A stretch of 34,160 nt of DNA from a virus. Its lineage: Duplodnaviria; Caudoviricetes. The notes beneath the pieces were generated by a model. It did no database searches. It was given only the letters and a program-made list of their open reading frames with translations, and was not told where the DNA came from. The position numbers were made by a program, and so were the translations under genes. The DNA lies in IMG/VR virus record IMGVR_UViG_3300037755_000726, positions 1 through 34,160 of that record, one strand, 5' to 3'. Position 1 is the first letter of the stretch. Each line of letters opens with the position of its first letter. This document shows positions 12,929 to 30,812 of the stretch, piece by piece.

Positions 12929-12985
12929 AGGGCCATGGGACATCCCCAGCCCGCCACGGCATCGCCGCGGCGGGTTTTTGCGTTT
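12929..12985 (+). terminator. Antiterminator/terminator element, copy 1
   Basis: AGGGCCAT GGG ACATC CCC AGCCC overlapping hairpin CCCGCCACGGC-ATC-GCCGCGGCGGG followed by TTTTTGCGTTT. Confidence 0.8.
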
Positions 12986-13042
12986 GGGCGTAACAAGGCG
13001 GGCCGCCACCGTCAATTTGCGGGCGTAACACCGTGGGCCGCC
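12986..13042 (+). repeat. Direct repeat GGGCGTAACA-N4-GGGCCGCC x2 in the scaffold 5' UTR
   Basis: Copies at 12986-13007 and 13021-13042 (35-nt period), just upstream of the AAGGAG RBS. Confidence 0.75.
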
Positions 13043-13064
13043 GCCACGAAGGAGCAGAGTTCTT

Positions 13065-13850
13065 ATGGCAGACGATCTCGACGCGCCGATCGACGACGCG
13101 GAAGGCACCGATCACGAGGGCGATCCCATTGCGGGTCTGCGCTCAGCCGTTCAGGCCGAGCGCGGCAAGCGGCAGGAAGCCGAGCAACGCGAACGCGCCC
13201 TCGAAACCCAGCTCGCCGAACTTCGGGGGCGGGTCGACGGCATGGCCGCGAGCCAGACCAAGAAGGACACCGCTCAGCCGGAGATGACTTCCGCCCAGCT
13301 TCGACAGGCAGTCGAGGAGGGGCGCATCTCCGAGGACCAGGCCGAGGAAATCAAGTTCAAGCAGGCCGAGAAGCGCATCCGCGAGTCGGTCACCGCCGAG
13401 GTGCGCAGCGAGCATTCGGCCAAGGAGCTGGGGACCAGGGTCGGCGAGGAGATCGGCCGCTACAACGCCGTGGTGCCCGAAATCGGCGACAAGGCCTCGC
13501 CGCAGTTCAAGAAGCTGAAGACCGAGTTCGACTACCTGGTCGGACTGGGTCATGACCCCCGGGACGGGCGCACCGAGCTTCTTGCTGCCCGTGCTGCCTT
13601 CGGGCCCGTGCAGGCGCTCGAGAAGGCCGGCAAGCCGAAGGGCCGCGAGACCTGGCAGGACACCGGCGGCTCAGCCGAGGACGACCACGGATCGGGCGGC
13701 AAGGACGGCCCGCCGCGCGACATGCCGGCCAAGAACCGCGACTACTACCGCGATCAGATCGCCAAGGGCGCCTACAGCGGGTGGAAAGAGGTCGCGAAGG
13801 AATGGAGCTACAAGCCCAAGCACGGGCCGAAGAGCCGGAGGGCCGCATGA
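13065..13850 (+). CDS. Capsid scaffolding protein
   Basis: Acidic N-terminus, coiled coil (AVQAERGKRQEAE), position between portal and capsid. Confidence 0.75.
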   Translation: MADDLDAPIDDAEGTDHEGDPIAGLRSAVQAERGKRQEAEQRERALETQLAELRGRVDGMAASQTKKDTAQPEMTSAQLRQAVEEGRISEDQAEEIKFKQAEKRIRESVTAEVRSEHSAKELGTRVGEEIGRYNAVVPEIGDKASPQFKKLKTEFDYLVGLGHDPRDGRTELLAARAAFGPVQALEKAGKPKGRETWQDTGGSAEDDHGSGGKDGPPRDMPAKNRDYYRDQIAKGAYSGWKEVAKEWSYKPKHGPKSRRAA

Positions 13851-14140
13851 TCGCCATCGTGCGCAGCGAAAAAGAGATCACGCCGAGCCAGCGCCTCGCC
13901 TTCGGGGCGGCACCGGCGGGCCGGCGCGGCAAGTCGGCCGGCAGCCATGTGCTCGACCGGGTGGACCTGAAGAAGGCCATCACGCTCTGCCACGACTGCA
14001 TGCCGAAGTTCGATATCAGGCGCTACGGGTACACGACGAAGCGCAACCTGCCCCGAGTGCGCGGCCGTTGCGACGGCTGCCAGAACCATTGCGAGCAGGG
14101 CCACTTGCTGGTCCACCGCTCGCTCGCCGATAACACGTAG
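13847..14140 (+). CDS. Small zinc-finger protein (CHDC...CDGC)
   Basis: ATGA overlap, GGAGG RBS, two CxxC. Confidence 0.65.
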   Translation: MIAIVRSEKEITPSQRLAFGAAPAGRRGKSAGSHVLDRVDLKKAITLCHDCMPKFDIRRYGYTTKRNLPRVRGRCDGCQNHCEQGHLLVHRSLADNT

Positions 14141-14149
14141 GAGAAGGCA

Positions 14150-14860
14150 ATGGAATACGCCTACATGCTGGGCGGCGGCGCACCGCTCGCGATGAAGTAC
14201 CAGGTCAACGAGACGCTGGCCAATGCGGGCATCCCCGTGCTGGCGCCTGGGGCCGGAAACGCGGGGGTGCAGATCAGCACCACCAGCTCCTGGGCCAACG
14301 CGGTCGGCGTGACGCTCGACACGGCCACTTACGTGACCTCACAGCAGACCGATGGCACCTCCGCCGAGCGCGAGGTGACGATCATCATCAGCCCGCAGGC
14401 GGTCTTCCGCGCCCTGATGTCGGGTGGAGCCGCCGAGGGCACGGCGCTCTCGCTCTTCACTGTCACGACGGCCTCGACAAGCGGGCTCGACGTGATTACG
14501 GGCGACTCCTTCACCGACATGGATGACGGCGTGATCTGGGGCTACGACGGCGCCAACGCCGGGCAGAAGCGCTGCATCACCGTTGGCGATGGGACCGATG
14601 CGTCGGTTACGGTCCCCTTCGACCAGGACACGGCGGTGGGCGACAACTTCCTGGCGGCGCCGTACTGGTTTTTGAGCGACGTTGCCGCAAATATCGCGAC
14701 CACCACCAACCTCTACCAGGCCGACGCCTCCACGGCGGGCGGCACTGGCGGCGCGGCCACGATCATCGACATGGAACTGAACGATATCAGCGGGGAGGGG
14801 CGCACCAAGTCCTTCGTCCTCTTCATCTTCGACGATCACGCGCTTCGCGAGACCACCTGA
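14150..14860 (+). CDS. Putative capsid decoration/cement protein
   Basis: AGGAG RBS; G/T/A/D-rich beta protein immediately before the capsid gene. Confidence 0.6.
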   Translation: MEYAYMLGGGAPLAMKYQVNETLANAGIPVLAPGAGNAGVQISTTSSWANAVGVTLDTATYVTSQQTDGTSAEREVTIIISPQAVFRALMSGGAAEGTALSLFTVTTASTSGLDVITGDSFTDMDDGVIWGYDGANAGQKRCITVGDGTDASVTVPFDQDTAVGDNFLAAPYWFLSDVAANIATTTNLYQADASTAGGTGGAATIIDMELNDISGEGRTKSFVLFIFDDHALRETT

Positions 14861-14874
14861 GCTAGGAGACCACG

Positions 14875-15795
14875 ATGCCGGTTCCTCACACAACTGACTC
14901 CTTCGGCGACCTTCTGGACATTCGCTTCCAGAAGATCTTCGATGACCAGTTTCCGCAGCTCAACGACATGCTGCCGGAGCTGTTCTCATTCGAGCCCGAC
15001 AACGGGCGCATCGACATGCGCTTCTCGGAGGTATCGGGCTACGGCGATATCCCGGAGTTCGGCGGCTCGGTCGTCTACCAGTCGGCCGCGCAGGGCTACG
15101 ACACCACCATCACGCCGGTGGAGTTCGCCTCCGGTGTCCAGGTGGAGCGGCGCCTTTTCGACACGGACCAGTTCTCCATCATGAACCAGCGCCCGTCCGG
15201 CCTCGCCCGGTCGGCGCAGCGCACGCGCCAGAAGCACGGCGCGCGCCCGTTCAACAACGCCTTCTCGGTGGACCAGTACTTCTACAACAACTCCGAGAGC
15301 GTTGCGATGTGCAGCGCCAGCCACACCACCACGGTGCAGAGCGCCTCGACCGCCAGCGGCTTCGACAACCTGATCACCACGGCGCTCAGCGCCACCGCTC
15401 TCTCGGCGGCCCGTATCCAGATGCGCGGCTTCCGAGACGCCGCGGCCAACCGCATCGACGTCGAGCCTGACGAGATCCTCTTCCCGCCCGACCTCTACGA
15501 GGTGGCCTTCGAGATCAACAGCTCGATGGGCAAGGTCGACACCGCGGAGAACAACCGCAACGTCCACTTCGGCCGCTACACGATGAAGGAGTGGAACTAC
15601 CTGAACGACGCCAACAACTGGTTCCTGATGGACGGAAGCCTGCGCAACGAGTCGCTGAAGTGGTTCGACTCCGTGCCGGTCGAGTTCGCCATGGCGGAAG
15701 ACATGGACACCCTGGTGGCCAAGTGGCGCCTGTACACGGTCTACGGCAACGGTCACCGCGACTGGAGATTCATTCTCGGCGCCAACGTTTCCTGA
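14875..15795 (+). CDS. Major capsid protein (HK97 fold, Mu gpT-like)
   Basis: GYGDIPEFGG.V.Y, LARSAQRTRQK, LSATALSAARIQM..FRD, PPDL, YLNDANNWFL, DWRFILG. Confidence 0.85.
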   Translation: MPVPHTTDSFGDLLDIRFQKIFDDQFPQLNDMLPELFSFEPDNGRIDMRFSEVSGYGDIPEFGGSVVYQSAAQGYDTTITPVEFASGVQVERRLFDTDQFSIMNQRPSGLARSAQRTRQKHGARPFNNAFSVDQYFYNNSESVAMCSASHTTTVQSASTASGFDNLITTALSATALSAARIQMRGFRDAAANRIDVEPDEILFPPDLYEVAFEINSSMGKVDTAENNRNVHFGRYTMKEWNYLNDANNWFLMDGSLRNESLKWFDSVPVEFAMAEDMDTLVAKWRLYTVYGNGHRDWRFILGANVS

Positions 15796-15805
15796 GGAGG
15801 GCGCG

Positions 15806-16024
15806 ATGGACAAGGCCGACAAGGCTTGGCAGGCCGAAGCCGACCTGGACGCGCTGATCCGGTCCAAGGATATCGAGGCGGATCGGTCGCGGGTCAACCA
15901 GGCGCGGGAAGTGGCATCGCGCCGGGTTGAACAGTACGGCGAGATGGCGCGCAAGCTGGCGCCGTCCAATCTCGGGTTCAACAACACGGTCAAGGGCAGC
16001 AAGATGTTCGGAGGCAAGAAGTGA
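15806..16024 (+). CDS. Hypothetical protein (WQAEADLDALIRSKDIEAD..R)
   Basis: GAGGAG RBS; follows the capsid gene. Confidence 0.75.
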   Translation: MDKADKAWQAEADLDALIRSKDIEADRSRVNQAREVASRRVEQYGEMARKLAPSNLGFNNTVKGSKMFGGKK

Positions 16025-16254
16025 CCCGGACCTACGTGGTTGCCATCGCCGATGATGCCGGGCCTTGCGCCGCCGCGCTCGAGAGCCTGCTGTGCGATCA
16101 ACTGGCACCCGACCCCGCCCTGATGGCTGAGGCCGGCGTGGCGGTCATGAGAGGGGAAGACTTCGCGGCGCGGATCGAAGCCGACGCGCGGCACGCTCGC
16201 AAGGCCTGGAATTCACTCACGCGACCGAAGGAGAGGCGCCGTGCCAAACCCTGA
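16021..16254 (+). CDS. Hypothetical protein
   Basis: GTGA overlap, GGAGG RBS. Confidence 0.6.
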   Translation: MTRTYVVAIADDAGPCAAALESLLCDQLAPDPALMAEAGVAVMRGEDFAARIEADARHARKAWNSLTRPKERRRAKP

Positions 16255-16438: not shown

Positions 16439-16462
16439 CTCTGGGGACCGAGGAGCCGTAGA

Positions 16463-17398: not shown

Positions 17399-17898
17399 TG
17401 AAGATAGCCATCGTCGGGGCGCACCGGGCAAGCAAACTACGGGCGCCCTACGACGATCCAGAGTGGGAGATATGGTCTTGCTCGCCGAGAAACGAAAACG
17501 AACTTCCCCGACAGGACGTCTGGATCGAGATTCACTTGCGGCACAAACTTCAGAAGCAAGTCGAGTACTGCGCTTTTCTTGCCGGGCTGCCGCTGGTCTA
17601 CATGCAGGAGCAATACCCCGAGTTCCCCGGATCGCTCGCCTATCCGCTGGATCGGATGCTGAAGCGCTTCGGGCCGCGCCTCTTCTGCTGGAGCATCTGC
17701 TACATGATGGCGCTGGCCATCGACAGGGAACCGGAACGCATCGGTATCTGAGGCGTGGAGGCGAACAGGACGGAAGGCTACGGCGATCAGCGGCTTTGCC
17801 TGCAACATTTCATCTGGATCGCGCGGCGTGAGGGCATAGAGGTGTCCTGCCCCCCATACCTCGATGCCAAGCCGCTTCTCTACGGATACGATTACTAG
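17398..17898 (+). pseudogene. Maf/sialyltransferase-like Rossmann protein interrupted by an in-frame TGA at 17749-17751
   Basis: MKIAIVG...APYDDPEWEIW...SICYMMALAI...RIGI*GVE...Y.DQR...RREGIEV..P...LLYGYDY; frame stays open 48 codons to TAG 17898, just before the next RBS. Confidence 0.7.
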
Positions 17899-17906
17899 GA
17901 GCAGTC

Positions 17907-18833
17907 ATGATCGAGCTTTCTACCGACATTCCCCTGCATCCCCGGCAGGTGCACGACCTCCAGGAAGAGCGCAAGTCCAAGGAGCGCATGCTGGCCGCGC
18001 CGGAGTACATCCGCCGGCAGCTCGACAGCAACGGCGAGCAGGTTGCGCGCCGCATCCGGGCTATCGACCGCGTGCTTGACGATCAGGCACCCAAGCCGAT
18101 CCCGGCCACCGAGCTGGACAATGCCGTGAAGGCCGAGAAGGCGCTGCGCGCGAAGTGGACGCAGGGCATGCCGACCCAGGCCGAGATGCGCCGCAACCCG
18201 GCGGGCGCGGTGGACAAGCACATGGCCTGGGAAAAGCGCTGCAAGAAGGACGTGCTGGCGTGGAAGAACCTGCGCCGCCGCCTGCACGCGACCGGCATCT
18301 CGGAGCACTCGCTGGCGAACGAGAACGATGTGTCCAACGTCGAGATGTATCGTCCCACCGGTAGGTCCGACGGCTCTCACGAGCTCAACATGCACAACGA
18401 GCAGATCCAGGGGAAGACCTTCTTCGGCCTCGAGACGGCGGGTCCGGGCGCGGTCATGAGCGATGACCAGAAGGCCGTCCTGCAAGAGATCAATCCGGCC
18501 CTGATGGATCAGATGGCGCTCCTCACCACCGAGCAGCGCGCCGAGACGCTGAAGCTGGTCGACGAGGTGATGGCGCTGCGCAAGGCAGCCCCGCCCCCTG
18601 CCGAGCCGGCGCGCTACGGCGGGCCGAACAAGGACCCGCAGCACCGCGACAAGCGCGCGGCGGCCAAGGCCGGCGGAGCGAAGCGCCGCAAGGACAGCGA
18701 CACCTACAAGAACTCCGAGCTGGCGGCGCTGAGAGAGCGCTGCAAGGCCTACGGCATGAACACCTTCGGCATGACCAAGCTCGCCATGCGGGAGGCCATC
18801 GAGGCACGGGTGGCGCAGGAGGGCAGCAGCTAG
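17907..18833 (+). CDS. Hypothetical helical protein with C-terminal HeH/Rho-N-like motif
   Basis: AGGAG RBS; C-terminal ELAALRERCKAYGMNTFGMTKLAMREAIE. Confidence 0.7.
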   Translation: MIELSTDIPLHPRQVHDLQEERKSKERMLAAPEYIRRQLDSNGEQVARRIRAIDRVLDDQAPKPIPATELDNAVKAEKALRAKWTQGMPTQAEMRRNPAGAVDKHMAWEKRCKKDVLAWKNLRRRLHATGISEHSLANENDVSNVEMYRPTGRSDGSHELNMHNEQIQGKTFFGLETAGPGAVMSDDQKAVLQEINPALMDQMALLTTEQRAETLKLVDEVMALRKAAPPPAEPARYGGPNKDPQHRDKRAAAKAGGAKRRKDSDTYKNSELAALRERCKAYGMNTFGMTKLAMREAIEARVAQEGSS

Positions 18834-19868
18834 ATGGCGTTCCCTTTCGATTTTGAGGCCAACTTCGAGGCTGGCTCGACCGGCGAGTGGGATAGTGAAA
18901 CCGACACGTCCAGTCAGTTGGATGTAGCTCACTACTCTGAGCTTGCCCGCTTTCCCTGGCCCACGGCAGCGCCTTGGCAGGGTGCCTATTGCATGCGCGC
19001 CACGCTGTCGGGTGGCACGGCCGATGCCTTCGTGACCGAGGGCGACATTGACATCGCGGACACCGTGAACGCCTTTTTCGCCTTCCGCATCTGGTTCAGC
19101 CCGACCTTCGATGCCACGGCCAACGACACGGTGAACGTTTTCGAGCTGCATTCGACCGGCCCGGTTATCGAAGCCACCTTCGGCTTCCGCTACGTGGCGG
19201 CGACCGACGTGATCAACTTCGGCATCGGCGAGGTGGCCCCGACCAGCTTCGGCGCCGCGGAAATCGAGAAAGGCAAGTGGTACACGGTCGAGCTGGACGT
19301 CACCGTGGACAGCGCCGCCGGCACGATCGACCTCTACGTCACCAAGGAGGGCGAGCCCTACAGCAACGACGTGTTCGCCGCTCAGGTGGATAGCCTCGCT
19401 CAGGCGGCGGTGATCCAGGGCGTGCTCGGCGTGCAGGATCATCTGGCGACCACCACGGGGGTGATGCTGATAGACCACTTCGTCATGGACAGTGCGCGGA
19501 TCTACCCTGACCGCCAGCGCTTCCCGGATGAGATCCTGATCACCAAGTCCAGCCACGTTTTCATCGGACCCGGGGTTATCGACAACGTGACGCTTCTCTC
19601 AGGGGACACCACCGTCGACAATGTGCTGCGCGTCTTCGACACCGACGCGGCCGATACGGCGGACGCGGGCAACATCGTCTGCGAGCTGAAGAACACAGCC
19701 GCTGACGAGACGGTCGACCCGGCCGGTATGCCGGTCAGGATTTCGCGCGGCGCCTATGTGGAGCTGGCCGGCACCGACCCGCGCGCCCTGGTCAAAATCT
19801 GCTCCACCACCGCCCGTTCGCCGGCGACGATCCGGCAAATCGGCCTGCGCCGCAACTGGGTTCGCTGA
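18834..19868 (+). CDS. Putative virion protein with concanavalin/LamG-like beta-sandwich
   Basis: FEANFEAGSTGEWD N-terminus, GKWYTVELDV, IDHFVMD strands. Confidence 0.65.
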   Translation: MAFPFDFEANFEAGSTGEWDSETDTSSQLDVAHYSELARFPWPTAAPWQGAYCMRATLSGGTADAFVTEGDIDIADTVNAFFAFRIWFSPTFDATANDTVNVFELHSTGPVIEATFGFRYVAATDVINFGIGEVAPTSFGAAEIEKGKWYTVELDVTVDSAAGTIDLYVTKEGEPYSNDVFAAQVDSLAQAAVIQGVLGVQDHLATTTGVMLIDHFVMDSARIYPDRQRFPDEILITKSSHVFIGPGVIDNVTLLSGDTTVDNVLRVFDTDAADTADAGNIVCELKNTAADETVDPAGMPVRISRGAYVELAGTDPRALVKICSTTARSPATIRQIGLRRNWVR

Positions 19869-19880
19869 GGAGCGTGATGC

Positions 19881-20408
19881 ATGGCAAACCTGAGGCCAAT
19901 CAACATCCCGGCGTCCTTCTGGAACCCGCAGGAATTCATGCGGGCCACCAAGGACGGGCGCGCCAAGAAGATACTGTCGGAGATCATCGACAAAATCGAC
20001 GAGCTGAACCGTGCCGTCGAGCGCACCAGCGCGCTGAAAGAGGTCGATTCCCTGCTGATCAAGACCAGGGCGGACCGTGAGGCCGCCGCACACGCGCTCA
20101 AGAATGCGGAGGGGCGTGGCAAGGCTGCGCTGGCGAAGGCCCGGGAGGATGCAAAGACACTGGTCGAGGGCGCTGCGGAGAAGGTGGTGACGCTGCAGAA
20201 GGCCGCCATGGAGGACCGTGACGCGGCCGAGCGGGAGCGCTCCCTGGCGGCTGCCTGGTCCGTCGCGCTGGAGAAGCAAAAGGCAGAGATCGACGCCACG
20301 CACCAGAGACAGGAGGCCCGGCAGAGGTCCTTGACCGCGCGGGAGGCATCGCTGGCGCACCGCCTCGCGGTCCTGGAGACGGCCCTCCGCGAAGCGGCCA
20401 AGGGGTGA
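19881..20408 (+). CDS. Coiled-coil protein
   Basis: A/E/K/R-rich heptad pattern; GAGGAG upstream. Confidence 0.7.
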   Translation: MANLRPINIPASFWNPQEFMRATKDGRAKKILSEIIDKIDELNRAVERTSALKEVDSLLIKTRADREAAAHALKNAEGRGKAALAKAREDAKTLVEGAAEKVVTLQKAAMEDRDAAERERSLAAAWSVALEKQKAEIDATHQRQEARQRSLTAREASLAHRLAVLETALREAAKG

Positions 20409-20413
20409 TGACC

Positions 20414-23400
20414 ATGCGATTTCTCTTCGCCCTACTGGCTGTTCTCGTTCTTTCGTTCTGCGTTTCATGGTATGCGCAGGCGCAGGGCACCGATACGTGG
20501 TCCTGCTCTGGCGATGTGACGGTCCCGGCCGGCACGGCTGATACCGGCTTCACCGTGCCGCTGAGCTGCGCGCGCACATTCACGCCTCCGCCAGACAACC
20601 CGCCCACCGTCGCCAATCTCAGCGCCACCTGTGACGAGGAAGTGGCGTGCGCGGGCGACATCGGCGCAGCGGACGATAACGGCTTCGTGGTGTCCTGGGG
20701 TGTGGCTCCTGGCGTCTTCATCGGCAATGCGGACGGCTCTTGGTCTTGGCAGACGGTGGACGGCGACGGCCTGGCCACCTACGGCATTCCGGGCGAGGTC
20801 AGCGATGGCGTGAACCCGCCCGTTCTCTTCACGCTGCAGGTGACGGTCAACGACACCGTTCAGGCTCCTCCGCCGCCCGCCGGCAACCTGCAGGACATCC
20901 TCAACATGCCTGCCGGCTCCTGGCTGGCCTACGGTGATCCGTGGTCGGACCTGGAGACGAGCGGCGAGTTGCAGCAGGTCCGCGATAACTGCAACATCCT
21001 GCTGAGCAAGATTGTCACCGGCTGGCAGGGTTTGGCCTTCGATGGCCGCTATTTCTGGAACCTCGCCGGCCCGGGCCATGGGGATGGCTGCTTTAACGGC
21101 ATTGTCCGCTATGACCTGGAGACAGCGCAGCCCGAGGTGGCTCTCCCCCATCTGCCGCTAAACATGCCGATCTGCTGGGGTCCGTGGCTGAAGGCCAACG
21201 GGACGCAGGATTGCTACTACGAGCCCTATGCGACTACCACTCCGGCGCCGATCTGCGCCACCACGAGTGATCCCAATTGCGGTGGCATCCCCTTGCAGGA
21301 CCGCTTGGACGCGGGGCTTTCGGTGTGGCCTACGGCGGACGCTATCCTGGCGGAGACGGAAGGCCAGGAGACCTTCGGCGCCTTCCTGCGCCCGCGTTCC
21401 TCGCACGACTACAACAACACTATTTTCCTGGATGGCTATGTCTACCTGATGACCGGGCAGACCTATGGCGGCATCCGGGCGGACGGCCAGGTGTGGCGCT
21501 TCGCGGTCACCGACCCGGCCGGCACATTGGAGCGCCTGCCGAACCGCTGGAACACGGCGGCTGAAGAGCCCTACGGCGGCTACAACGCCAATCTGGTCTC
21601 GACACCGGGCGGTGTGTTCATGTTCAGCGGCGGCACGGTCTGCGAAGCCGATATGGTGGCGGGGACCTATGACTGTGCCGGTCATCCCATCAACGTCAGC
21701 AACACTGCCTCCATGGCTTGGGACGAGGGCCGCCAGGGTATTTGGGCGGTTGATTCGCAGTTCAGCCGGATTGTCTTCTACAGGCAGGACGCGGGCGGCT
21801 CCTGGGCCGCCGACCCGACCCTTGGCATTACCGATGCGTCGCTGTCCGGTACCAACGTGGGGCGCGCGGGCATCTGCCTAGTGCCCACGGATACCGGCGC
21901 CAATCCGGTTATCTGGGGCACCAGCGCGACGCTGCTGCGCTGGGATGGCACTGCCCTTACGACAGTGACCGGGCAGGTTGACCAGCCCGCCACCGCCTCC
22001 AGCACGGTGCTGAACAAGTGGCGTTGGAATGCCGACCTGGGCGTCTGCCTCGGGCTGACCAATTGGGACCGTGGCGTGGATGCGTGGCGACCGGACTTCA
22101 GCAACTGGCAGGAGGCCAGCCTGCCGCCGCCCGATCCGGATCCGCAGCCCGGCGACTGGCCCGTGTTCGCTGGCCATACCGTGGCGCCCGCTGCCTGGAC
22201 GCCTGCGGCCTGGAATGCGCCGATCGAGCGCCAGCCGGAAGCCCCCGACTACGACGCGCTCTGCCCTGGCCCGTGGGCTACGCTGGACTACCGCACCGAT
22301 GTGGACCTTGCGGGCAGCGCGGCGCAGATGCGCGGGCTGGTAAGCGCGGGCTTCCCGAATGTGCGGGTGTATCTCCACCCTCGTGAGGACGCTGCTGAGC
22401 CCTACAGTGCCGGCCTCGTATTCGACAAGGTGACGTGCGGGGAAGTGGTTGGCGTCCCTGCGAATGGCAACCGTCCGACCATGACTGCCGGCGTGGCCTT
22501 TCCCAAGATTGGGACGGGCCTTATCGCGCGGGGCATTGACTTTCAGAGCGGCAACATTGGGTGGGCCTGTCACCAGCCGACCCAATCCTGTCCAGTCTTT
22601 ACCGTGCTGCACGACAACCGGATTGGAGGCGCAGGCCTGCTAGGTGATTCAGACCCGGCCCTTCCGACCACCTATCTGGAGCTCCGCGGCAACATCTTCG
22701 GGCCGAACCTGGACTGGCACGGCATGTACCTTGAGCGCTCCATCGGCCAGCTCGTGGCGCTCAGCAACGTCTTCCATGCCTCGGGCAACGCCGGGCACGC
22801 GCTGAAGAACCTCGCCAACTACGCGCGCATCGAGGGCAACGTCTTCTCGAATGTGGACATCGACGGCCAGCCCCTATCGCGCAACGGCGTTGACGATGTG
22901 ATCGGCCTCTTTCCGCTGGATCACTACGCCTGCACGGACTCTATCATCCGCAACAACACCATCGTGTTCCGCACCTCGGGCAACGTCGCCACGCTGCTGA
23001 CCATGCGGGGGCGCAACGCTTGGGGGAACTGCGACAAGGGCCAGCGCCTCGCCGATGGCAGCCGGGAAGTGTTTCCGCCCGAGAGCGTCGAGTACCTGGA
23101 CGGCCCGACCTGGGATGCTATTGGCTTGGCAGCGCAGGAGTTTGCGAACGGCTATGCGGCAGCCTCGGCCGAGCCCTGGCTGTTCACGCATTTGATCGAG
23201 GGCAACACCTTCATCGTGTTTGAGGGAAAGGTGGGCGTGGTGCCCTACGCGCTGACGGTCCATTCCATGCGGCCCATTGCGGACAACACGGTAGAGGCTG
23301 ACCTGAAGGCGCAGTTGGAAGCCTTGCTGGCGTTCTGCACGGACAACCCAGACTTCGCGACCTATGACGAGTGTTGGTTTGCGAGCGCGAGCGAGGAAGT

Positions 23401-23680
23401 CCTCTACGTCCGCGACCACATCCCCCCGTCCTGGCACGACACGATGATGCACGGCAACGGACTTGGCCGGATCGAGGTGCCGAACAGCTTGCCTATTCGG
23501 GCACCCTCTAACTGGGTAGAGCGCACGGGCGTCTTCTGGGACGAGGCGCAGACCTACATCGCCTGCAATGCGGACGGGACGGACTGCGCGGAGCGCGGCC
23601 CCTACTCGATGGATATCGACCCGGCGGCCTGGGACGACGTGCCGCTCGCCAGTCCGCCGCGCGTCATCGCCCTACAGTAA
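20414..23680 (+). CDS. Large multidomain protein with Sec-type signal peptide (Ig-like, beta-propeller-like and beta-helix-like regions)
   Basis: MRFLFALLAVLVLSFCVSWYAQA|Q; Pro-rich linkers (PPPDNPP, APPPPAG, PPPDPDPQP); repeated GNVF/GNIF/NNTI beta-helix motifs; start could also be 20405 or 20408. Confidence 0.75.
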   Translation: MRFLFALLAVLVLSFCVSWYAQAQGTDTWSCSGDVTVPAGTADTGFTVPLSCARTFTPPPDNPPTVANLSATCDEEVACAGDIGAADDNGFVVSWGVAPGVFIGNADGSWSWQTVDGDGLATYGIPGEVSDGVNPPVLFTLQVTVNDTVQAPPPPAGNLQDILNMPAGSWLAYGDPWSDLETSGELQQVRDNCNILLSKIVTGWQGLAFDGRYFWNLAGPGHGDGCFNGIVRYDLETAQPEVALPHLPLNMPICWGPWLKANGTQDCYYEPYATTTPAPICATTSDPNCGGIPLQDRLDAGLSVWPTADAILAETEGQETFGAFLRPRSSHDYNNTIFLDGYVYLMTGQTYGGIRADGQVWRFAVTDPAGTLERLPNRWNTAAEEPYGGYNANLVSTPGGVFMFSGGTVCEADMVAGTYDCAGHPINVSNTASMAWDEGRQGIWAVDSQFSRIVFYRQDAGGSWAADPTLGITDASLSGTNVGRAGICLVPTDTGANPVIWGTSATLLRWDGTALTTVTGQVDQPATASSTVLNKWRWNADLGVCLGLTNWDRGVDAWRPDFSNWQEASLPPPDPDPQPGDWPVFAGHTVAPAAWTPAAWNAPIERQPEAPDYDALCPGPWATLDYRTDVDLAGSAAQMRGLVSAGFPNVRVYLHPREDAAEPYSAGLVFDKVTCGEVVGVPANGNRPTMTAGVAFPKIGTGLIARGIDFQSGNIGWACHQPTQSCPVFTVLHDNRIGGAGLLGDSDPALPTTYLELRGNIFGPNLDWHGMYLERSIGQLVALSNVFHASGNAGHALKNLANYARIEGNVFSNVDIDGQPLSRNGVDDVIGLFPLDHYACTDSIIRNNTIVFRTSGNVATLLTMRGRNAWGNCDKGQRLADGSREVFPPESVEYLDGPTWDAIGLAAQEFANGYAAASAEPWLFTHLIEGNTFIVFEGKVGVVPYALTVHSMRPIADNTVEADLKAQLEALLAFCTDNPDFATYDECWFASASEEVLYVRDHIPPSWHDTMMHGNGLGRIEVPNSLPIRAPSNWVERTGVFWDEAQTYIACNADGTDCAERGPYSMDIDPAAWDDVPLASPPRVIALQ

Positions 23681-23791
23681 GGGCGGCTCCTTGTCGTCCT
23701 TGCCCTTGCCGAGGCCGGGCCGCACCCACCAGAGGGCAACGACAATGGCGAAGAGAGCAACCAGTACCAGGACTTCGGCTAGTGCGGCCAT
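23672..23791 (-). CDS. 39-aa single-TM membrane micro-protein MAALAEVLVLVALFAIVVALWWVRPGLGKGKDDKEPPLL
   Basis: Below the ORF-track cut-off; GGGAGG RBS upstream on - strand; fills the gap; stop overlaps the stop of the convergent gene. Confidence 0.65.
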   Translation of the reverse strand: MAALAEVLVLVALFAIVVALWWVRPGLGKGKDDKEPPLL

Positions 23792-23866
23792 GTTTCTTCC
23801 TCCCTGGGTAGAGCGTAGCAACCCTGGCGGAGTCCTGGAAGACACAATTTCGGCTAGGAATAGTTA

Positions 23867-24574
23867 ATGGCCGTAGCATTCGATGCAGCCACAAATTCCG
23901 GGCTGCAGACAGTCGATTTCACTTTCGCGCATACGGCGGGCGTAGGGGTGCGCGGCGTGCTGGTCGGCGTAAGCCAGATCGCCCCCGCAGACCAGGTGGA
24001 CTCGACCGCCTACGGCGCGGCTACGCCCACTGCCGTAACCGGCTCGCCATCTGAGTTCGCCCTTGGCGAGGGCGGCACTGTCCACTTGGACTTTCTGGGG
24101 ACCAGTGTCCCCACGGGCGAGCAGACGGTCGCTGTCAACGAGACGGGCGGGGGCAACAAGGCCGGATTTGCGCTGACAGTTACCGCAGACGCAGACGTGG
24201 TGGTGCAGGACACTACTGTTCTGTCTGGCGAGGACGGCACGGGAGAGATTACCGGCACGTTGTCGCTGGGTGGCAATGTCTGTTTCTGCGGCGTGCTGGT
24301 GTGGAACGGCGCCAATGCGGTTGGCGGCTTCGCACCGCTGACTGGCTGGACTGACCGGGGCGAGGTTGACCTCGGCATTGAGTGCTGCTCGCTCTACACC
24401 TGCGACACCGTTGACGATCAAGACAAGCTCTTCGGCATCAACGCCGGGGCTAACACGTTCGATTACAACATGATCGGCTTCGCGCTGACCGAGGATGCGG
24501 GCGGAGGCGCTGCTAGCGTTGGCTCTGGCCTGACGACGGGCCTAAAGCTTGAAAGGCGGAGGCTGGTGGCATGA
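23867..24574 (+). CDS. Putative virion/tail-associated beta protein
   Basis: MAVAFDAATNSG..., G/T/V-rich; ATGA overlap with next gene. Confidence 0.65.
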   Translation: MAVAFDAATNSGLQTVDFTFAHTAGVGVRGVLVGVSQIAPADQVDSTAYGAATPTAVTGSPSEFALGEGGTVHLDFLGTSVPTGEQTVAVNETGGGNKAGFALTVTADADVVVQDTTVLSGEDGTGEITGTLSLGGNVCFCGVLVWNGANAVGGFAPLTGWTDRGEVDLGIECCSLYTCDTVDDQDKLFGINAGANTFDYNMIGFALTEDAGGGAASVGSGLTTGLKLERRRLVA

Positions 24575-25713
24575 CCATTAATTTCGGAGATGTCCCGGCC
24601 GGTGATACGCTCCCGGTCCCGTTTGCGTCCTATGATAGCAACGGCGCATCGGTGACTTTGACCGGCTTGGTCGTCACGGATATCGAAATTTACAAGGACG
24701 GCTCAGTAACGCAGCGCGCAAGCGACGCCGGCTACACCCTGCTCGACACGGACGGCATAGACTTTGACGGCGTCACCGGCATACACGGCTTTTCAATCGA
24801 CCTATCTGACAACACGGATGCGGGCTTCTACGCGGTCGGGTCGCGATATTTTGTGGTCGTGAGCGCGGTCACCATCGATGCTCAGACGGTGAATTTCATC
24901 GCCGCGACGTTCCGCATTGTGCCTGCCGAGGCATCTGCTGGCGTGCCTGACGTGAACGTTGCCAGCATCGACGCAAACGCCATCACGGCAACGTCCATCG
25001 CTGCGGATGCCATCACGGCGGCTAAGGTGGCAGCGGATGTACATGCCGAGGCTGCGGATGCGAATTGGGATGAGGCTGTTGCTGGCCACAGCACACCGGG
25101 AACGTTTGGGCAAGCTTACGACAGTGTGAGTATTGGTGTATTCATTGCTGATGATGCTATAGGCTCAGATCAGCTTCACTCTTCCGCCATAAATGAGATT
25201 GTGGATGCGACCTGGGACGAGTTGCAGAGCGCTCATGGTGGCGCCGGCACCTTTGGCGAGATCGCCACGGAGATAGCCGCCATCCTGCTCGACACCGCCG
25301 AGATCGGCGCCGCCGGTGCGGGGCTTACAGAAGCTGGCGGGACTGGCGACCATCTAACTGCCCTGGCGACGGCTGCGAACCTCGCGACCGTTGACGGCAT
25401 TGTGGATGCCATCCTGCTCGACACCGCAGAGATTGCGAACCTGAATGACATCTCGGCAGCCGATGTCAACGCCCAGATGGTTGACGTGATGGCTACGGAC
25501 ACGCACGCCCAGCCCGGCCAGGAGTCTCCGGCGGCCACCACGTCCTACAGCCTTATGCTCCGCTACCTCTACAAGATGATGCGGAACCGCAAGGAACAGA
25601 CCGCCGATACGTTCAGCCTCTATGACGATGCCGGGACCACGGTGGACCAGAAATCAGCGGTTAGCGACGATACATCTCTCGCGGTTCGTGACGAACTGGT
25701 GACGGGGCCGTAA
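24571..25713 (+). CDS. Fibre-like virion protein with internal repeats
   Basis: IDANAITATSIAADAITAAKVAAD; DxxWDE...H...GTFG x2; AILLDTAEI x2; C-terminal LYDDAGTTVDQK..VSDD. Confidence 0.7.
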   Translation: MTINFGDVPAGDTLPVPFASYDSNGASVTLTGLVVTDIEIYKDGSVTQRASDAGYTLLDTDGIDFDGVTGIHGFSIDLSDNTDAGFYAVGSRYFVVVSAVTIDAQTVNFIAATFRIVPAEASAGVPDVNVASIDANAITATSIAADAITAAKVAADVHAEAADANWDEAVAGHSTPGTFGQAYDSVSIGVFIADDAIGSDQLHSSAINEIVDATWDELQSAHGGAGTFGEIATEIAAILLDTAEIGAAGAGLTEAGGTGDHLTALATAANLATVDGIVDAILLDTAEIANLNDISAADVNAQMVDVMATDTHAQPGQESPAATTSYSLMLRYLYKMMRNRKEQTADTFSLYDDAGTTVDQKSAVSDDTSLAVRDELVTGP

Positions 25714-25716
25714 CGG

Positions 25717-26124
25717 ATGGCAGTAGATTCACGCCTGAAACGATTCACCATGATGCAGATGGCTGGCGAGTGCTGTGGCATTCCTCCTATGGTCCGGTTC
25801 ACGACTGGCCCGCTAGGCCCCGCTGCGCGCCTTATGGCCCTGTGGCTCTACACAGGCATCGCGGCCGATCCGCCGGCGGAGGAGGACGACGCGTCCGCAG
25901 CGCGCCGAATGCGCCAGATGCGGGCGATCTTGAACAAGAGGAACCGCAGGCGGTATAATCGCTGCACTCCTAGGGCCATCGGACAGACCGAGCCCCGGCA
26001 AGGCGGATCCCCGCCGGCCGGGGCTTTTGCTTTGAGGCGACCATGGGCACTGCTACGCAACCTACTGACTACTCGGATTTATACACCGATTTGCAGAATC
26101 GCATCCGCCAGCAGACCGGCGTGA
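25717..26124 (+). CDS. Small virion-associated protein (true C-terminus uncertain)
   Basis: MAVDSRLKR...WLYTGIAA looks protein-like up to RNRRR (~25953); the remainder crosses element copy 2 and overlaps the next gene by 82 nt. Confidence 0.55.
   Translation: MAVDSRLKRFTMMQMAGECCGIPPMVRFTTGPLGPAARLMALWLYTGIAADPPAEEDDASAARRMRQMRAILNKRNRRRYNRCTPRAIGQTEPRQGGSPPAGAFALRRPWALLRNLLTTRIYTPICRIASASRPA
25930..25959 (+). promoter_or_regulatory. Candidate sigma70 promoter TTGAAC-N18-TATAAT
   Basis: Perfect -10 box in GC-rich DNA, 12 nt upstream of element copy 2. Confidence 0.45.
25972..26033 (+). terminator. Antiterminator/terminator element, copy 2
   Basis: AGGGCCAT CGG ACAGA CCG AGCCC overlapping AGCCCCGGC-AA-GGCGG-ATCC-CCGCC-G-GCCGGGGCT followed by TTTGCTTT. 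Confidence 0.8.
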
Positions 26125-27065
26125 CTGCGACCCAGAATATCGCCAAAAGGGCCATCAATACCGCCCTGCACGACATGCATATCGGCTTCTCCGAGAAGCT
26201 GCCCTGGGCTGAGCGGACTGCCGAACTTGTTACGCAGCCGGAATATACGACCGGCACCGTGACGATCACGCAAGGGTCCACGACCCTGACCGGCACAGAT
26301 ACGCTGTGGGACACGGCCAACGCCTTCGGGGTGGACAACGTGCGCGTCGGCGGCAAGCTGGTCCTCGCCGGCGGCAAGGAGGTCTACGAGGTCTCCGCGG
26401 TAGCCAGCGACACCTCTCTGACACTCGCCACCCGCTACATCGGCGAGGACTTGGCGGCCGAGACCTACGTCTACTTCGAGGACGAATACGCGCTGGCGAG
26501 CGACTTCCTGCGCCCCGTCTCCTTCCGGTCCTTCGACATAAACAACGAGGTGGAGCTGATCGGGCGGACCGAGTTCCGCATGCGCTACCCGCGCAACAAG
26601 ACCACCGGCAAGCCCCGCGTCGCCACCCTGCTGGACAAGCCATTTTCCGGCAGCACCACGCCTGTCAGGAAAGTGCAGCTTCACCAGCCGCCCAATCAGG
26701 CCTTCATCCTGCCCTACGCCTACATCACGTCCAACCTGGCCGTCACGGCGGCCGGCGCCGCGGCGACGCAGCTGGTCAACGACACCGACGAACCAATCGT
26801 GCCGCTGCGCGCGCGGCATGCCATTGTGTACCACGCCCTCTACCACCACTACCGCGACCTGAAAGACGACACCCGCTCGCAGGAAGCCAAGGCGGAGTAT
26901 ACCGACATCATCACGCGCCTCGTCGGCGACCAGGAGATCGGCACCAGCCGGCCGCAGATCCGGCCCCGCGTCGGGCCCTACGCGAGGAGAGCCAAGGAGC
27001 CCTATGGGCGCAGGGGTGGGCGGCGCTTCATCACTGGAGATGCCTTCGACGAGAACCGCGACTGA
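26043..27065 (+). CDS. Head-to-tail adaptor (tail tubular A/P22 gp4-like) with inserted beta domain
   Basis: YSDLYTDLQNRI...AKRAINTALHDM...LPWAE, EYALASDF, DEPIVP...HAIVYHAL; insertion YTTGTVTITQGSTTLTGTDTLW. Confidence 0.7.
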   Translation: MGTATQPTDYSDLYTDLQNRIRQQTGVTATQNIAKRAINTALHDMHIGFSEKLPWAERTAELVTQPEYTTGTVTITQGSTTLTGTDTLWDTANAFGVDNVRVGGKLVLAGGKEVYEVSAVASDTSLTLATRYIGEDLAAETYVYFEDEYALASDFLRPVSFRSFDINNEVELIGRTEFRMRYPRNKTTGKPRVATLLDKPFSGSTTPVRKVQLHQPPNQAFILPYAYITSNLAVTAAGAAATQLVNDTDEPIVPLRARHAIVYHALYHHYRDLKDDTRSQEAKAEYTDIITRLVGDQEIGTSRPQIRPRVGPYARRAKEPYGRRGGRRFITGDAFDENRD

Positions 27066-28663
27066 TGGCCACTAAAGAACGCTTCGTCCAGCATCTCTTT
27101 GCCGGCGGATGGGCTACCGATTTCGGCGTTACTGCTTCGGTTCCATTCGAGGACGTGGTGCAGATCCCCTACCTGATCGACGCGGAAAACGTTCTCTACG
27201 AGCTGAACGGCGGCCCGCACAAGATGCCGGGAACGTCGCTTCTGGGCGTGGTTGATGATGTTGATCAGCCGGCCAATCCGATGAAAGGACTGTTCGATTT
27301 CTGGGTTACGGGCACGGCTGGCGCACCAACGCAACATCGCGTCGGCCACGTCGACACTCTAATTTTCAGGGACGACGCGGACGGCACCTTCACCAGCCTG
27401 TTCACCGGCCTTGAGGCAGGCCGGGTGCCCTCCTACGCGGTGTTGGAAGACGTGCTGGTGATCGCAAGCGACAGCACGTCGGATGTGCCGAGATCCTGGG
27501 ACGGGTCGACGGCGCAGAATCTGGCCGGCTCGCCGCCCAATTTCGCCTTCTCGGAGGCGCACAAGAACCGCATGTGGGCGTCGGGCGACGTGACCAATCC
27601 GTCCCGGCTGTACTACTCGGCACTGCTCGACCCGGAGGACTGGACGGGGTCAGGGTCGGGATCGATCGATATCGACCCGTCGGACGGCGACAGCATCACG
27701 GGCATTGCCTCGCACCTGAACGAGCTCTGGGTGTTCAAGGGACCCTACAAGGGATCGATCCATCGCATCGTCGGCTCCTCGCCTACTGGCGACGACGCCT
27801 TCGCGCGCGTGACGTTTACAAACGGCGTCGGCGCGGTGGGGCACAACACAATATTCCGCTTCGGCAACGACTTGGGCTTCATGTGGTCGGACGGCTCGAT
27901 CCGCAGCCTGTCGGCGACAGAGAAATTCGGCGATTTCTCCGAGGCGGCACTGTCGCGGCCGATAAACATTGGCTTCATCGACGCGAGAGTGAACCTCTCG
28001 CGACTGAAGCACGCCTGGGCGGCGGTTGACGACATTCGCGGAGTAGCTGTTTTCGCCATCCCGATCGATGCGGCGACCAATCCGAATGCCGTTATAGCGA
28101 TGGACTATCGGTTTGCTCCGCCGCGGTGGTCGTTCCTGTCGGACTTTGACGAAGTAACGGCCATGGCCTCAGTGGTGGACCAGACCAACAATGGCCGGCG
28201 CATTATCTTGATGGGCGGGAAGCAAGTAGACACTAGCCCGGCGGTGCACAAATGGGGTCAGCCAACGCGCTCGCTGGACGGAACCGCTATCTCGTTCAAG
28301 GTCACCACCCCGCACATGAATTACGGCCTGCCGGCCCACATGAAGACCATCACGGCGGCCTCGCTCGGCCTGGCGCCCAAGTCCGACGACACGGTCACTT
28401 TTGGCTGGCAGCGCGACAACTTTGCGCAGCAGACCGAGACCGTCACGCAGGGCGGCGGCGGAGCGGCGCTGGATTCCTTCATCCTCGATACCGACGTGCT
28501 TGGCGGCGCGAGCTTCGTTGACCGCTTTATGGAGCTGGTCGAGGGCGACGAGTTCCGCAGCGTGCGGTATCAGGTCACCCACTCGGCCAACAATGCCGAT
28601 CTCGAGCTTCATTCCATCGGCGCGCTGCTGAAGCTGCCCGGCCCGATTTCCCTGGAGAACTGA
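27065..28663 (+). CDS. Tail nozzle/stabilisation protein (tail tubular B/P22 gp10-like), 532 aa
   Basis: TGATG overlap; FAGGW, AHKNRMWASG...SRLYYSALLDPEDW, DGDSITGI, LWVFK, GVGAVGHNTI beta-propeller motifs. Confidence 0.8.
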   Translation: MATKERFVQHLFAGGWATDFGVTASVPFEDVVQIPYLIDAENVLYELNGGPHKMPGTSLLGVVDDVDQPANPMKGLFDFWVTGTAGAPTQHRVGHVDTLIFRDDADGTFTSLFTGLEAGRVPSYAVLEDVLVIASDSTSDVPRSWDGSTAQNLAGSPPNFAFSEAHKNRMWASGDVTNPSRLYYSALLDPEDWTGSGSGSIDIDPSDGDSITGIASHLNELWVFKGPYKGSIHRIVGSSPTGDDAFARVTFTNGVGAVGHNTIFRFGNDLGFMWSDGSIRSLSATEKFGDFSEAALSRPINIGFIDARVNLSRLKHAWAAVDDIRGVAVFAIPIDAATNPNAVIAMDYRFAPPRWSFLSDFDEVTAMASVVDQTNNGRRIILMGGKQVDTSPAVHKWGQPTRSLDGTAISFKVTTPHMNYGLPAHMKTITAASLGLAPKSDDTVTFGWQRDNFAQQTETVTQGGGGAALDSFILDTDVLGGASFVDRFMELVEGDEFRSVRYQVTHSANNADLELHSIGALLKLPGPISLEN

Positions 28664-28665
28664 CG

Positions 28666-30342
28666 ATGAACCGCAAGACCCTGGCCTACCTGCTGATCAT
28701 CATCGCCCTCGCGGTCACCTGGCAGGCGCCGCAGCTTGGCGCCGCGGTGTCGCGCCTGAAGACCTGGGCGTCCGGCGAGACGCTGACCGCCTCCGACCTC
28801 AATGCCGAGTTCAACAACGTCCTGAACAACGGCGAGGATCTGGGCTGGCCGGCAACCAAGGCCAAGGACATGGACGCCAAGCAGATATTGCTGGACGGCG
28901 ACCAGGACACGCACGTTCAGGCCAACACCGACGACCGGATCGATTTCGCGGTCGGCGGCTTCGATGGGCTGCGGATCGACGGCACGACGGCATCGAGCGT
29001 CAACGGCTTCGATCTCCAGACTCAGTCGACCGGCGTAGCGCCACAGATCGAGGCGCGCGGCGAGGCCAACATCGGGATTGAGATCCACGACAGCAACGGA
29101 AATGAAATGCTGTCGCTGACGGCCGTGGCGAGCGCGGTCAACGAGCTTCTCATCACCAACGCGGCGACCGGCAATGCACCGATTCTGCGCTCGATCGGCG
29201 AGGCCAATATCGGCTTCACGCTGTCGGACAGCAACAGCAACGAGGTTGTAACCGGCGCGTCGGTGGCCTCGGCGGTCAACCAGATCCGCATCGGCAATTC
29301 GATCACCGCGGTGGCGCCGTTCATCGAGTCGGATGGCGAGTCGAACATCGGTTTCCAGCTGCGCGACAGCAATTCGAATGAGGTCCTTATCGGCGCGTCC
29401 ACCGCCTCGGCGATCAACGAGGTGACGATCACCAACGCGGCAATAGGAACCGCCCCTTTGATCTCTGCGACGGGCGGGGATACCGACGTTTCAATCGAGG
29501 TGCGCTCGAAGGGGGACGGGGACATCAACCTGGCGCCGCAGGGCGTCGGACAAGTCCAGTTCAACGGGATCGATCTGGCGACCGTCATGCGCGGCCATAT
29601 CGCCGGCATGACCCTGTCCAACAACGGCGTTGACGCGGCTCACGACATCGACATCGCGGTGGGGGTGGCGACGGCGGATGACCAGTCGGCCATGATCGTG
29701 ATTGCTACTGCGCTCACCAAGCAGATCGATGCTGCCTGGGCCGTGGGCGACGACGCGGGTTGCCTGGACGGGACCGAGAGCGTCGGCGGCACGCCCGATG
29801 CGGACACGTGGTATCACGTCTATTCGATCCGGCGCTCGGACACCAACGTGCGCGACATTCTGTGCTCGGAAAACGCCTCCGCCCCGACCCTGCCGACCAA
29901 CTACGACCAGCAGCGCCGCATCGGCGCCGTGCTGACGGATGGCAGTGCCAACATTCTCGGCTTTTCTCAGGTCGGCGACGAATTCCTGTGGGACGCCCCG
30001 ATGCAAGACGTAGACAGTGCCAACCCGGGCACTGCCGCTGTGCTATCGACATTGAGTGTCCCTACGGGAATCCAGGTCTATGCGAATTTGGTCTTCACCC
30101 TGTTCGATCTCACGCCCGTCGCCAGCACCAACGGCATAATGACCTCCCCCGACCAGACAGACACGGACCCCAATACGATTCCTGAGATCTTTATTACTGC
30201 GGACGGCGAACAAGCCTTTCTCGCACGTCTCGCGAGAACCAACACGAGCGGTCAAGTTAGATTCCGCATATCAAATTCAGACGCCGGCGTCACCGTGCGG
30301 ATTGTCACGCATGGCTGGACAGACCCGAGGGGCAAGGAGTGA
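28666..30342 (+). CDS. Tail fibre-like protein with N-terminal signal-peptide-like segment and three 46-aa repeats
   Basis: MNRKTLAYLLIIIALAVTWQAPQLGA then RLKTWASGETLTASDLNAEFNN; GExNIG repeats at 29059, 29197, 29335 (138-nt period); C-terminal DTWYHVY...PTLPTNY..RRIGAVLTD. Confidence 0.75.
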   Translation: MNRKTLAYLLIIIALAVTWQAPQLGAAVSRLKTWASGETLTASDLNAEFNNVLNNGEDLGWPATKAKDMDAKQILLDGDQDTHVQANTDDRIDFAVGGFDGLRIDGTTASSVNGFDLQTQSTGVAPQIEARGEANIGIEIHDSNGNEMLSLTAVASAVNELLITNAATGNAPILRSIGEANIGFTLSDSNSNEVVTGASVASAVNQIRIGNSITAVAPFIESDGESNIGFQLRDSNSNEVLIGASTASAINEVTITNAAIGTAPLISATGGDTDVSIEVRSKGDGDINLAPQGVGQVQFNGIDLATVMRGHIAGMTLSNNGVDAAHDIDIAVGVATADDQSAMIVIATALTKQIDAAWAVGDDAGCLDGTESVGGTPDADTWYHVYSIRRSDTNVRDILCSENASAPTLPTNYDQQRRIGAVLTDGSANILGFSQVGDEFLWDAPMQDVDSANPGTAAVLSTLSVPTGIQVYANLVFTLFDLTPVASTNGIMTSPDQTDTDPNTIPEIFITADGEQAFLARLARTNTSGQVRFRISNSDAGVTVRIVTHGWTDPRGKE

Positions 30343-30344
30343 CG

Positions 30345-30743
30345 ATGGCAGCGGTCCGGCTCGCCACCAACGCCGATGGGCCGCGCATCGGCGAGCTGCT
30401 GACCGGCATGGGATTTAGAGACGCTCTAGACTGGTCGGACATTGCGCCCTACTGGCTGGTCGCGGAGGAGGAGGGGCGCATTATCGGGGCTGTGCAGACC
30501 GTGCTGGGAAAGCCGGTAGGTTGGATGGAGCTGCTCTCCATCGATCCGGGCCTCTCGCACAAGCGCAAGGCCATGGTGGTCAGGGCCTTGATCTATCGGG
30601 GGATGGCGCTCCTGCAGGGGGCGGGGGCGCAGATGGTCATGTTCTCGGTCCCCCACGAGCTGCGCAGCTACCGGGCCGTGCTGGAGCGCCGCGGCGGGGT
30701 TGTGGTCGGCGCTGGCAATATCATGGCAAAGCGGCTAATCTAG
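30345..30743 (+). CDS. GNAT-fold protein
   Basis: VRLATNADGPRIGELL, WLVAEEEGRIIGAV, LSIDP; lies between fibre and ejection genes. Confidence 0.7.
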   Translation: MAAVRLATNADGPRIGELLTGMGFRDALDWSDIAPYWLVAEEEGRIIGAVQTVLGKPVGWMELLSIDPGLSHKRKAMVVRALIYRGMALLQGAGAQMVMFSVPHELRSYRAVLERRGGVVVGAGNIMAKRLI

Positions 30744-30752
30744 CCGCGACAG

Positions 30753-30812
30753 AGGGTCATCTGGCATTCAGAGCCCGCCTCCCCATCCCCGGGGCGGCGG
30801 GCTTTTTGCGTT
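30753..30812 (+). terminator. Antiterminator/terminator element, copy 3
   Basis: AGGGTCAT CTG GCATT CAG AGCCC overlapping AGCCCGCC-T-CCCC-ATCCCC-GGGG-C-GGCGGGCT followed by TTTTGCGTT. Confidence 0.8.

Follow-up and report, generated by a model that had tools for sequence, protein, structure and literature searches.

The linear contig IMGVR_UViG_3300037755_000726, from a virus of the Caudoviricetes and analysed here over its whole length of 34,160 bases (the window; 65% G+C, estimated completeness 69%), carries three copies of a bulged RNA hairpin of 24 nucleotides (nt), each overlapping the 5′ base of a predicted intrinsic terminator. A 61-codon gene for a DUF2292-like protein ends 16 nt upstream of the first copy, and in relatives of this phage, gene, hairpin, and terminator are present together and absent together. 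We consider it likely, judging from sequence comparison, that the small protein binds the hairpin and antiterminates, imposing a threshold delay on the head, tail, and late virion blocks. A broader proposal, whose chances we place slightly below even, is that DUF2292-like proteins are undescribed stand-alone RNA-binding antiterminators of bacteria and phages, which here would serve three graded gates and would form, together with their RNA, a swappable timer slot that a Com-like or a third small protein can occupy instead. The features at the centre of this proposal are the following:

12728..12913, + strand: 61-codon gene for a DUF2292/YezD-like helix-strand-strand protein (from profile and conservation), candidate RNA-binding antiterminator
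12929..12952, + strand: hairpin copy 1, predicted bulged antiterminator-type hairpin, the copy kept in relatives
12949..12980, + strand: predicted intrinsic terminator 1, 5′ base in common with copy 1, preceding the scaffold-like and capsid genes
25972..25995, + strand: hairpin copy 2, within the 3′ part of an open reading frame (ORF) at 25717-26124
25992..26029, + strand: predicted intrinsic terminator 2, preceding the head-tail adaptor gene
30753..30776, + strand: hairpin copy 3, 10 nt past a weakly GNAT-like gene
30773..30808, + strand: predicted intrinsic terminator 3, 5′ base in common with copy 3

An earlier, sequence-only reading of this DNA had described one 24-nt element at three places, with an inner 3-bp stem that differs among the copies and still pairs in each. 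Both observations hold: the element is present at 12929, 25972, and 30753 on the + strand, and the chance of Watson-Crick pairing throughout all three inner 3-bp stems is about 8e-6 at the G+C content of the window, or 4e-4 if one copy is taken as given. Searching the window with the element pattern and up to 2 mismatches gave 5 matches, of which the exact ones are the three copies, against 0.56 expected from shuffles. The CAU/A internal loop of that reading has to be redrawn; folded alone, each copy forms an outer stem of 4 bp, a 2-nt CA bulge, an inner stem of 4 bp that begins with a U-A pair followed by 3 bp, and a 5-nt loop. Copies 1 and 2 recur unchanged in contigs from a possible source run, and contigs of a second study carry copy 2 with 1 difference in 176 nt and copy 3, up to position 30802, with 3 differences in 151 nt, so that the copies are no assembly slip.

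In every copy, the GCCC that forms the 3′ strand of the element also opens a hairpin followed by a T tract, as had been proposed, so that hairpin and terminator share four bases and only one of the two folds can exist at a time. The hairpins at the three copies are the most stable hairpin-plus-T-tract sites on the + strand of the window (−34.5, −29.9, and −27.3 kcal/mol, the next being −23.8), and a simple terminator scan reported a part of copy 2 only and missed the bulged copies 1 and 3. Once the downstream bases are included, the terminator fold wins over the element by 2.4 kcal/mol at copy 1, by 5.5 kcal/mol at copy 2, and by 7.2 kcal/mol, or 9.3 with one more 5′ base, at copy 3.

Relatives were collected by an alignment search with the capsid protein, which yielded the best 80 of 106 viral loci, the best 80 of at least 134 metagenome loci, and at least 6 genome loci, in overlapping sets. 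In many of these relatives, a terminator lying 1.7-2.0 kb upstream of the capsid gene bears the same hairpin on its 5′ base, and the fold is kept across capsids as low as 53% identity. When viral contigs were searched with the element pattern and a terminator tail, exactly the three closest capsid relatives were returned, whereas the pattern without the terminator gave 57 matches, none with all three inner pairs, which are taken as chance. A plain MAFFT alignment of 29 hand-picked copies shows changes on both sides in 7 of the 8 pairs and 83% of cells paired, against at most 65% when slid; the terminator base is likewise paired, in 82% of cells. In the model-fitted alignment, where all 34 copies have the single bulged hairpin, 7 of the 8 pairs again have two-sided changes, 86.8% of cells are paired against at most 62.6% when slid, and the two-sided cells number 26 against 8.6 in shuffles, a control that ignores kinship. 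The U-A column reads UA in 25 copies, CG in 3, UG in 3, and is unpaired in 3. The hairpin of L120 has a 4-nt loop. Where the outer stem departs from the common form, to GAGU/GCUC in L066 and to CGGU/GCCG in L067 and L074, the 3′ strand of the terminator changes to match. The homologues covary in a structure that overlaps the terminators, so that this check named by the sequence-only reading did not refute it; the terminator loop beginning with ATC that it also listed is not kept in relatives. The terminator is the minimum-energy fold in all 34 copies, with a median gap of 7 kcal/mol, so that a stabilising partner would be needed, and the switch is predicted from these energies to be off by default.

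It has to be asked whether these sites are a switch at all and not a terminator cassette duplicated in one genome, or an operator acting at the level of DNA. The absence of copies 2 and 3 at the orthologous places in relatives speaks for such an explanation, which is nevertheless very improbable: the stems differ among the three copies with pairing kept, G-U substitutions in the stems fit RNA, and every copy lies on the coding strand at a terminator, in a fold that survives down to the capsid identity given above. A small-molecule riboswitch would account for a terminator overlapped by an alternative fold, and it is hardly credible here, given an element of 24 nt only, whose stems and loop vary and whose invariant bases are few, its strict tie to one protein family, and the lack of any match in Rfam 15 over the three copies (E ≤ 5), in keeping with the earlier reading, which recognised no named RNA family in it. 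The inference of that reading, a ligand- or protein-stabilised antiterminator with the logic of ribonucleic antiterminator (RAT) sites, stands as the best reading in its RAT-like logic, with a protein as the likeliest partner and a small molecule as an unlikely one.

Copy number differs between the window and its relatives. Within the window, the RNA model R1 scores strongly at three sites, which are copies used in its own training, and no other site exceeds 10 bits. Applied to 46 whole relative records, the model gives a single strong site in 22 and two in none, and the two near-complete relative genomes with a strong site have one copy each; 4 extra matches at E 0.005-0.006 arose in this search, of which the one in L251 is not the element. 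Neither inspection nor the model searches revealed an element before the adaptor gene in relatives. In the relatives searched, neither copy 2 nor copy 3 was found, which suggests that copy 1 is the conserved gate and that the other two are additions of this lineage. A loose pattern placed promoter-like sequence within 60 nt upstream of just 2 of 33 copies. Separately, L022 has a terminator behind the pattern, yet no model match, and three hairpin-only matches (L308, L310, L312) were rejected, as their sites are coding or antisense, with neither a terminator nor the small gene.

The small gene starts with TTG after GGAG, overlaps the stop codon of the preceding gene, and is the only one of its kind encoded in the contig. 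Homologues of its product occur at the same place in 28 other loci (29 in all), and 439 proteins match the small-protein profile at E ≤ 0.001. In a variant contig (one contig, depth 2.1, read by hand), all 7 of the listed differences in the gene are synonymous third positions. The protein has 61 residues, is free of cysteine, and carries no added domain. Its predicted monomer consists of one helix and two strands (mean predicted local distance difference test score, pLDDT, 84). A homodimer joined through the first strand is predicted with a score of 0.69 against 0.00 for the best control, with runs agreeing in 100% of contacts and pLDDT of at least 88; the mark used for this score is reached by 20 of 30 solved homodimers and by 1 of 23 monomers.

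By profile, though not by the Pfam cut-off, the protein is DUF2292-like. The profile of its family matches 20 members of PF10055 with profile-profile probabilities of 94-96% over 45 columns, with a probability of 95.9 and an E-value of 5e-9 in hhalign, and both share the pattern G-x-V-x-hydrophobic-x-hydrophobic-x-DG. The window protein itself does not reach the PF10055 cut-off in Pfam, and one of the 125 family members (L081) passes it, with 23.6 bits against a cut-off of 22. The top Atlas match of the small protein, useful as a lead only, is a cluster that is 25% DUF2292 (score 0.81). NCBIfam holds no relevant family for the 125 members, and no match to the small protein was found among 50,697 GenBank phages. 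Structure searches with the predicted model gave no significant match (best Z 3.1), which does not imply a new fold. Small DUF2292 (PF10055) proteins go by the names YezD and OscA.

The association between this gene and the hairpin was followed in 107 loci that reach 2.5 kb or more upstream of the capsid gene; dereplication leaves 78. The hairpin is present in 26 of the 29 relatives with the small gene, a proportion that is partly by construction, both models having been trained on most of the 26, and in none of the 49 without it; kin share traits, and the capsid tree is a quick one with 22 of 75 inner branches open. Five loci held out of both models (L163, L253, L297, L302, L304) all have the hairpin just downstream of the gene and belong, as far as checked, to the same phage clade; L300 agrees too but duplicates L092. 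Among the gene-bearing branches lie five loci (L064, L080, L071, L101, L125) in which a short gap contains no small gene, no hairpin, and no strong terminator.

The hairpin might be a real antiterminator with some other partner, be it a host RNA-binding protein, a virion protein (for example, the scaffold), or the product of a gene in the part of the genome that the contig lacks; the small gene would then merely travel along. With the contig about 69% complete and the gene adjoining the hairpin, so that a single deletion removes both and could explain joint losses, this explanation has some footing. We judge it unlikely, in that the hairpin is never seen in relatives that have the same scaffold and capsid genes but lack the small gene (0 of 49), CAT, ANTAR, and NusG genes were not found in the contig, and related hairpins follow PF10055 genes in three bacterial phyla, outside the phage slot. 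The position of the hairpin close behind a gene also invites ribosome-coupled attenuation, in which a ribosome at the upstream stop codon would cover the 5′ strand of the hairpin and set the fold with no dedicated binding protein. The stop codon lies 16 nt from copy 1 and 10 nt from copy 3, and it reaches into the element in L058, L059, and L142; copy 2 lies inside an ORF. Attenuation is nonetheless quite improbable, as the upstream gene encodes a conserved folded domain and no leader peptide, the distance between stop codon and element varies between 0 and about 70 nt, and the conserved bulge and loop bases would be superfluous for such a mechanism.

Among bacterial genomes from three phyla, PF10055 was found in 26 of 151, 9 of 201, and 2 of 201. 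A rule written post hoc for the bacterial hairpin (YGA, four pairs, a loop of 4-6 nt, then AG) places a related hairpin within 300 nt downstream of the PF10055 gene in 19 of 39 matches, some of which are near-duplicate rows, compared with 1 upstream and 1.5 expected from shuffles, and it held in 2 of 3 loci fetched later. The bacterial form has a GA/A loop where the phage hairpin has a 2-nt bulge instead, and R1 does not detect it; the inner hairpin of L257 is letter-identical to that of copy 2. Compared with Rfam (E ≤ 1), the bacterial hairpins of 20 loci gave no match. In the Bacillota the hairpin mostly leads, by eye, into a terminator. In L254 (1290-1398), an S-adenosylmethionine (SAM) riboswitch stands ahead of a DUF2292 gene, and a hairpin and terminator come after that gene, forming two gates in series. 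Tandem two-domain DUF2292 proteins occur in the Bacillota loci L269-L273 and L283, and would fit a family working as a dimer.

From these observations, the following mechanism is proposed. The small protein, as a predicted dimer, would hold the hairpin closed, the terminator would be barred, and transcription would continue. Because the gene lies upstream of its own gate, its product would be made from the terminase-portal transcript, build up, and open the gates once past a threshold, which would make the system a delay switch rather than a feedback loop. No small gene adjoins copy 2 or copy 3, so that the protein would act there in trans. The energy gaps at the three copies (2.4, 5.5, and 7.2-9.3 kcal/mol) hint weakly at an order of opening in which the head block comes first, then the tail, and then the last block. 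Binding, read-through, and timing are all proposed on the strength of sequence and predicted folds.

Beyond the training overlap, kinship, the open tree branches, and the post hoc rule with its near-duplicates mentioned above, several points weigh against binding and antitermination by the DUF2292-like protein. Three relatives (L077, L078, L116) have the small gene without a model match; L077 and L078 have terminators with a hairpin that is reduced, by eye, and no terminator was found at the slot of L116. The fold search gave no known RNA-binding fold among its matches. The incomplete contig may lack another regulator. Copy 2 lies inside an ORF and downstream of a promoter-like site. The inner stem is compatible with the closed terminator, so that a protein gripping the inner stem alone would leave the terminator closed. 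In the Pseudomonadota loci L284-286, L288, and L290, the related hairpin has, by eye, no terminator behind it, which suggests that PF10055-type proteins may not always antiterminate.

The last two points lend themselves to a reading in which the hairpin-bound protein shields or marks the end of the RNA, or else affects translation, and the terminators are leaky step-down signals; passages of PMC12591593 further describe BglG as stabilising RNA too and as binding RAT-like sites without terminators. The outer stem, which excludes the terminator, is kept and covaries in L066, L067, and L074, however, and we regard this reading as rather unlikely compared with antitermination by the DUF2292-like protein.

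The promoter-like site next to copy 2 is the following:

25930..25959, + strand: sigma70-like promoter match TTGAAC-18-TATAAT, 12 nt before copy 2

Promoter-like sites in that region are at chance level (2 overlapping matches against 2.5 expected). The ORF at 25717-26124 (+ strand) has a plausible start, spans copy 2 and terminator 2, and shares 82 nt with the adaptor gene; the contigs compared have no indel listed there. In L077 (3600-3660) and L078 (8045-8100), promoter-like sequence was seen by eye between the small gene and the reduced hairpin.

The slot before the scaffold-like gene is filled differently in other relatives. A Com-like zinc ribbon, with Pfam Com scores below the cut-off, occupies it in 10 of the 78, and behind it there is mostly a terminator whose hairpins are different:

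L091, L095, L103, L105, L119, L133, L134, L169, L180, L222 (and L177): Com-like zinc-ribbon slot before the scaffold-like gene

A small protein of a third type, in L161 (4195-4413) and L162 (163-385), is followed, by eye, by a different terminator-overlapping hairpin with a GCUU/AAGC base. In the window, a twin repeat (GGGCGTAA ... GGGCCGCC, twice) lies at 12986-13055 (+ strand), downstream of terminator 1 and ahead of the scaffold-like gene's ribosome-binding site. It is kept in L058, L059, L142, L163, and L151, and by eye in L304, and is a candidate translational operator for the scaffold gene.

The recognised genes of the contig, all on the + strand, are those for RusA, a GcrA homologue, a primase-helicase, the terminase, an SU10-type portal, the capsid, an SU10-type adaptor, and other virion proteins. 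Those that bear on the placement of the gates are:

225-755, + strand: phage-encoded GcrA homologue (PF07750, E 1e-18)
13065..13850, + strand: scaffold-like gene, first behind gate 1, so called from its position and coiled-coil character, with no family match
14875..15795, + strand: major capsid protein (PF25209, E 1e-11; phrog_371)
26043..27065, + strand: SU10-type head-tail adaptor, first gene behind gate 2 (PF24175, E 9e-7)
30824..31996, + strand: first gene behind gate 3, for a virion structural protein that carries a Peptidase_S74 chaperone domain (phrog_8003, E 2.5e-19; PF13884, E 4e-8)

The GcrA homologue suggests an alphaproteobacterial host. The sequence-only reading had placed the copies before the scaffold/capsid, tail, and ejection modules; profiles back the capsid, portal, and adaptor, while 'scaffold' and 'ejection' are positional labels, the latter given to the genes behind gate 3 for where they lie. 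The closest capsid among the GenBank phages is 33% identical to that of the contig. The capsid-adaptor block (17400-25700) measures about 10 kb, compared with 2-9 kb in relatives, and its genes are mostly without a family match.

We found no title or abstract opening that describes the hairpin RNA or a function for DUF2292/YezD, transcriptome papers having been judged by title and abstract. The motif gave 0 matches in the 8 supplements of PMC2864571 and 0 in 6 files of PMC10690425; the latter, as far as the parts available go, reports 8,495 IMG/VR candidates, which could include the motif unnamed. If the proposal is true, an uncharacterised family of small proteins, present in at least three bacterial phyla and in phages, would gain a function, and a new protein-RNA pair would join the few RNA-binding antiterminators (CAT, ANTAR, HutP). 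The system would also represent an undescribed timing mode for virus assembly, with late genes timed by terminator gates site by site and not by a polymerase-modifying factor. A 61-residue protein with a 24-nt site would offer synthetic biology a compact orthogonal switch, and the two target sites far from the gene allow action in trans to be told apart from any effect of a neighbouring gene's translation.

Among known systems, the ANTAR regulators (AmiR, NasR, EutV), as portrayed in parts of PMC12591593, resemble the phage arrangement in a protein-assisted alternative fold over a terminator and in having several sites per regulon, but they recognise dual hairpins and not one bulged hairpin; the ANTAR domain PF03861 was not found in the contig, a search with a weak control in which no control genome passed the cut-off. 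The NusG N-terminal domain PF02357 (LoaP, RfaH type) was likewise absent from the contig, with positive controls. Mu Com, an RNA-binding protein according to PMC6483171, is similar as a small phage protein that recognises a cognate RNA, the mom mRNA, and turns on a downstream late gene. Com is a zinc finger that activates translation in that account, whereas the phage protein is free of cysteine and its RNA target overlaps a terminator.

The closest likeness is to BglG, SacY, and LicT, in which, as set out in portions of PMC12591593, a dimeric co-antiterminator (CAT) domain, 55 residues long, binds to a 30-nt stem-loop lying partly over a terminator. In both systems a short hairpin, about 24-30 nt in length, overlaps part of an intrinsic terminator, the default state is off, and the stabiliser is, for the phage by our proposal, a small dimeric domain of about 55-60 residues. 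They differ in that the phage protein is predicted to have one helix and two strands as opposed to the four strands of CAT, carries no PRD or other sensor domain, faces a different RNA, and serves virion genes, not sugar operons. The CAT domain PF03123 had 0 matches in the contig (E ≤ 0.1, controls positive, contig 69% complete) and none in the small protein. By sequence, the system would therefore be RAT-like in its working without belonging to the CAT-RAT systems.

Phages are known to time their genes by terminator read-through through lambda N at nut, lambda Q at qut, and HK022 put, where RNA polymerase is modified once and acts at a distance. Here, in contrast, every terminator is overlapped by a site of its own, and this points to control exerted locally, site by site.

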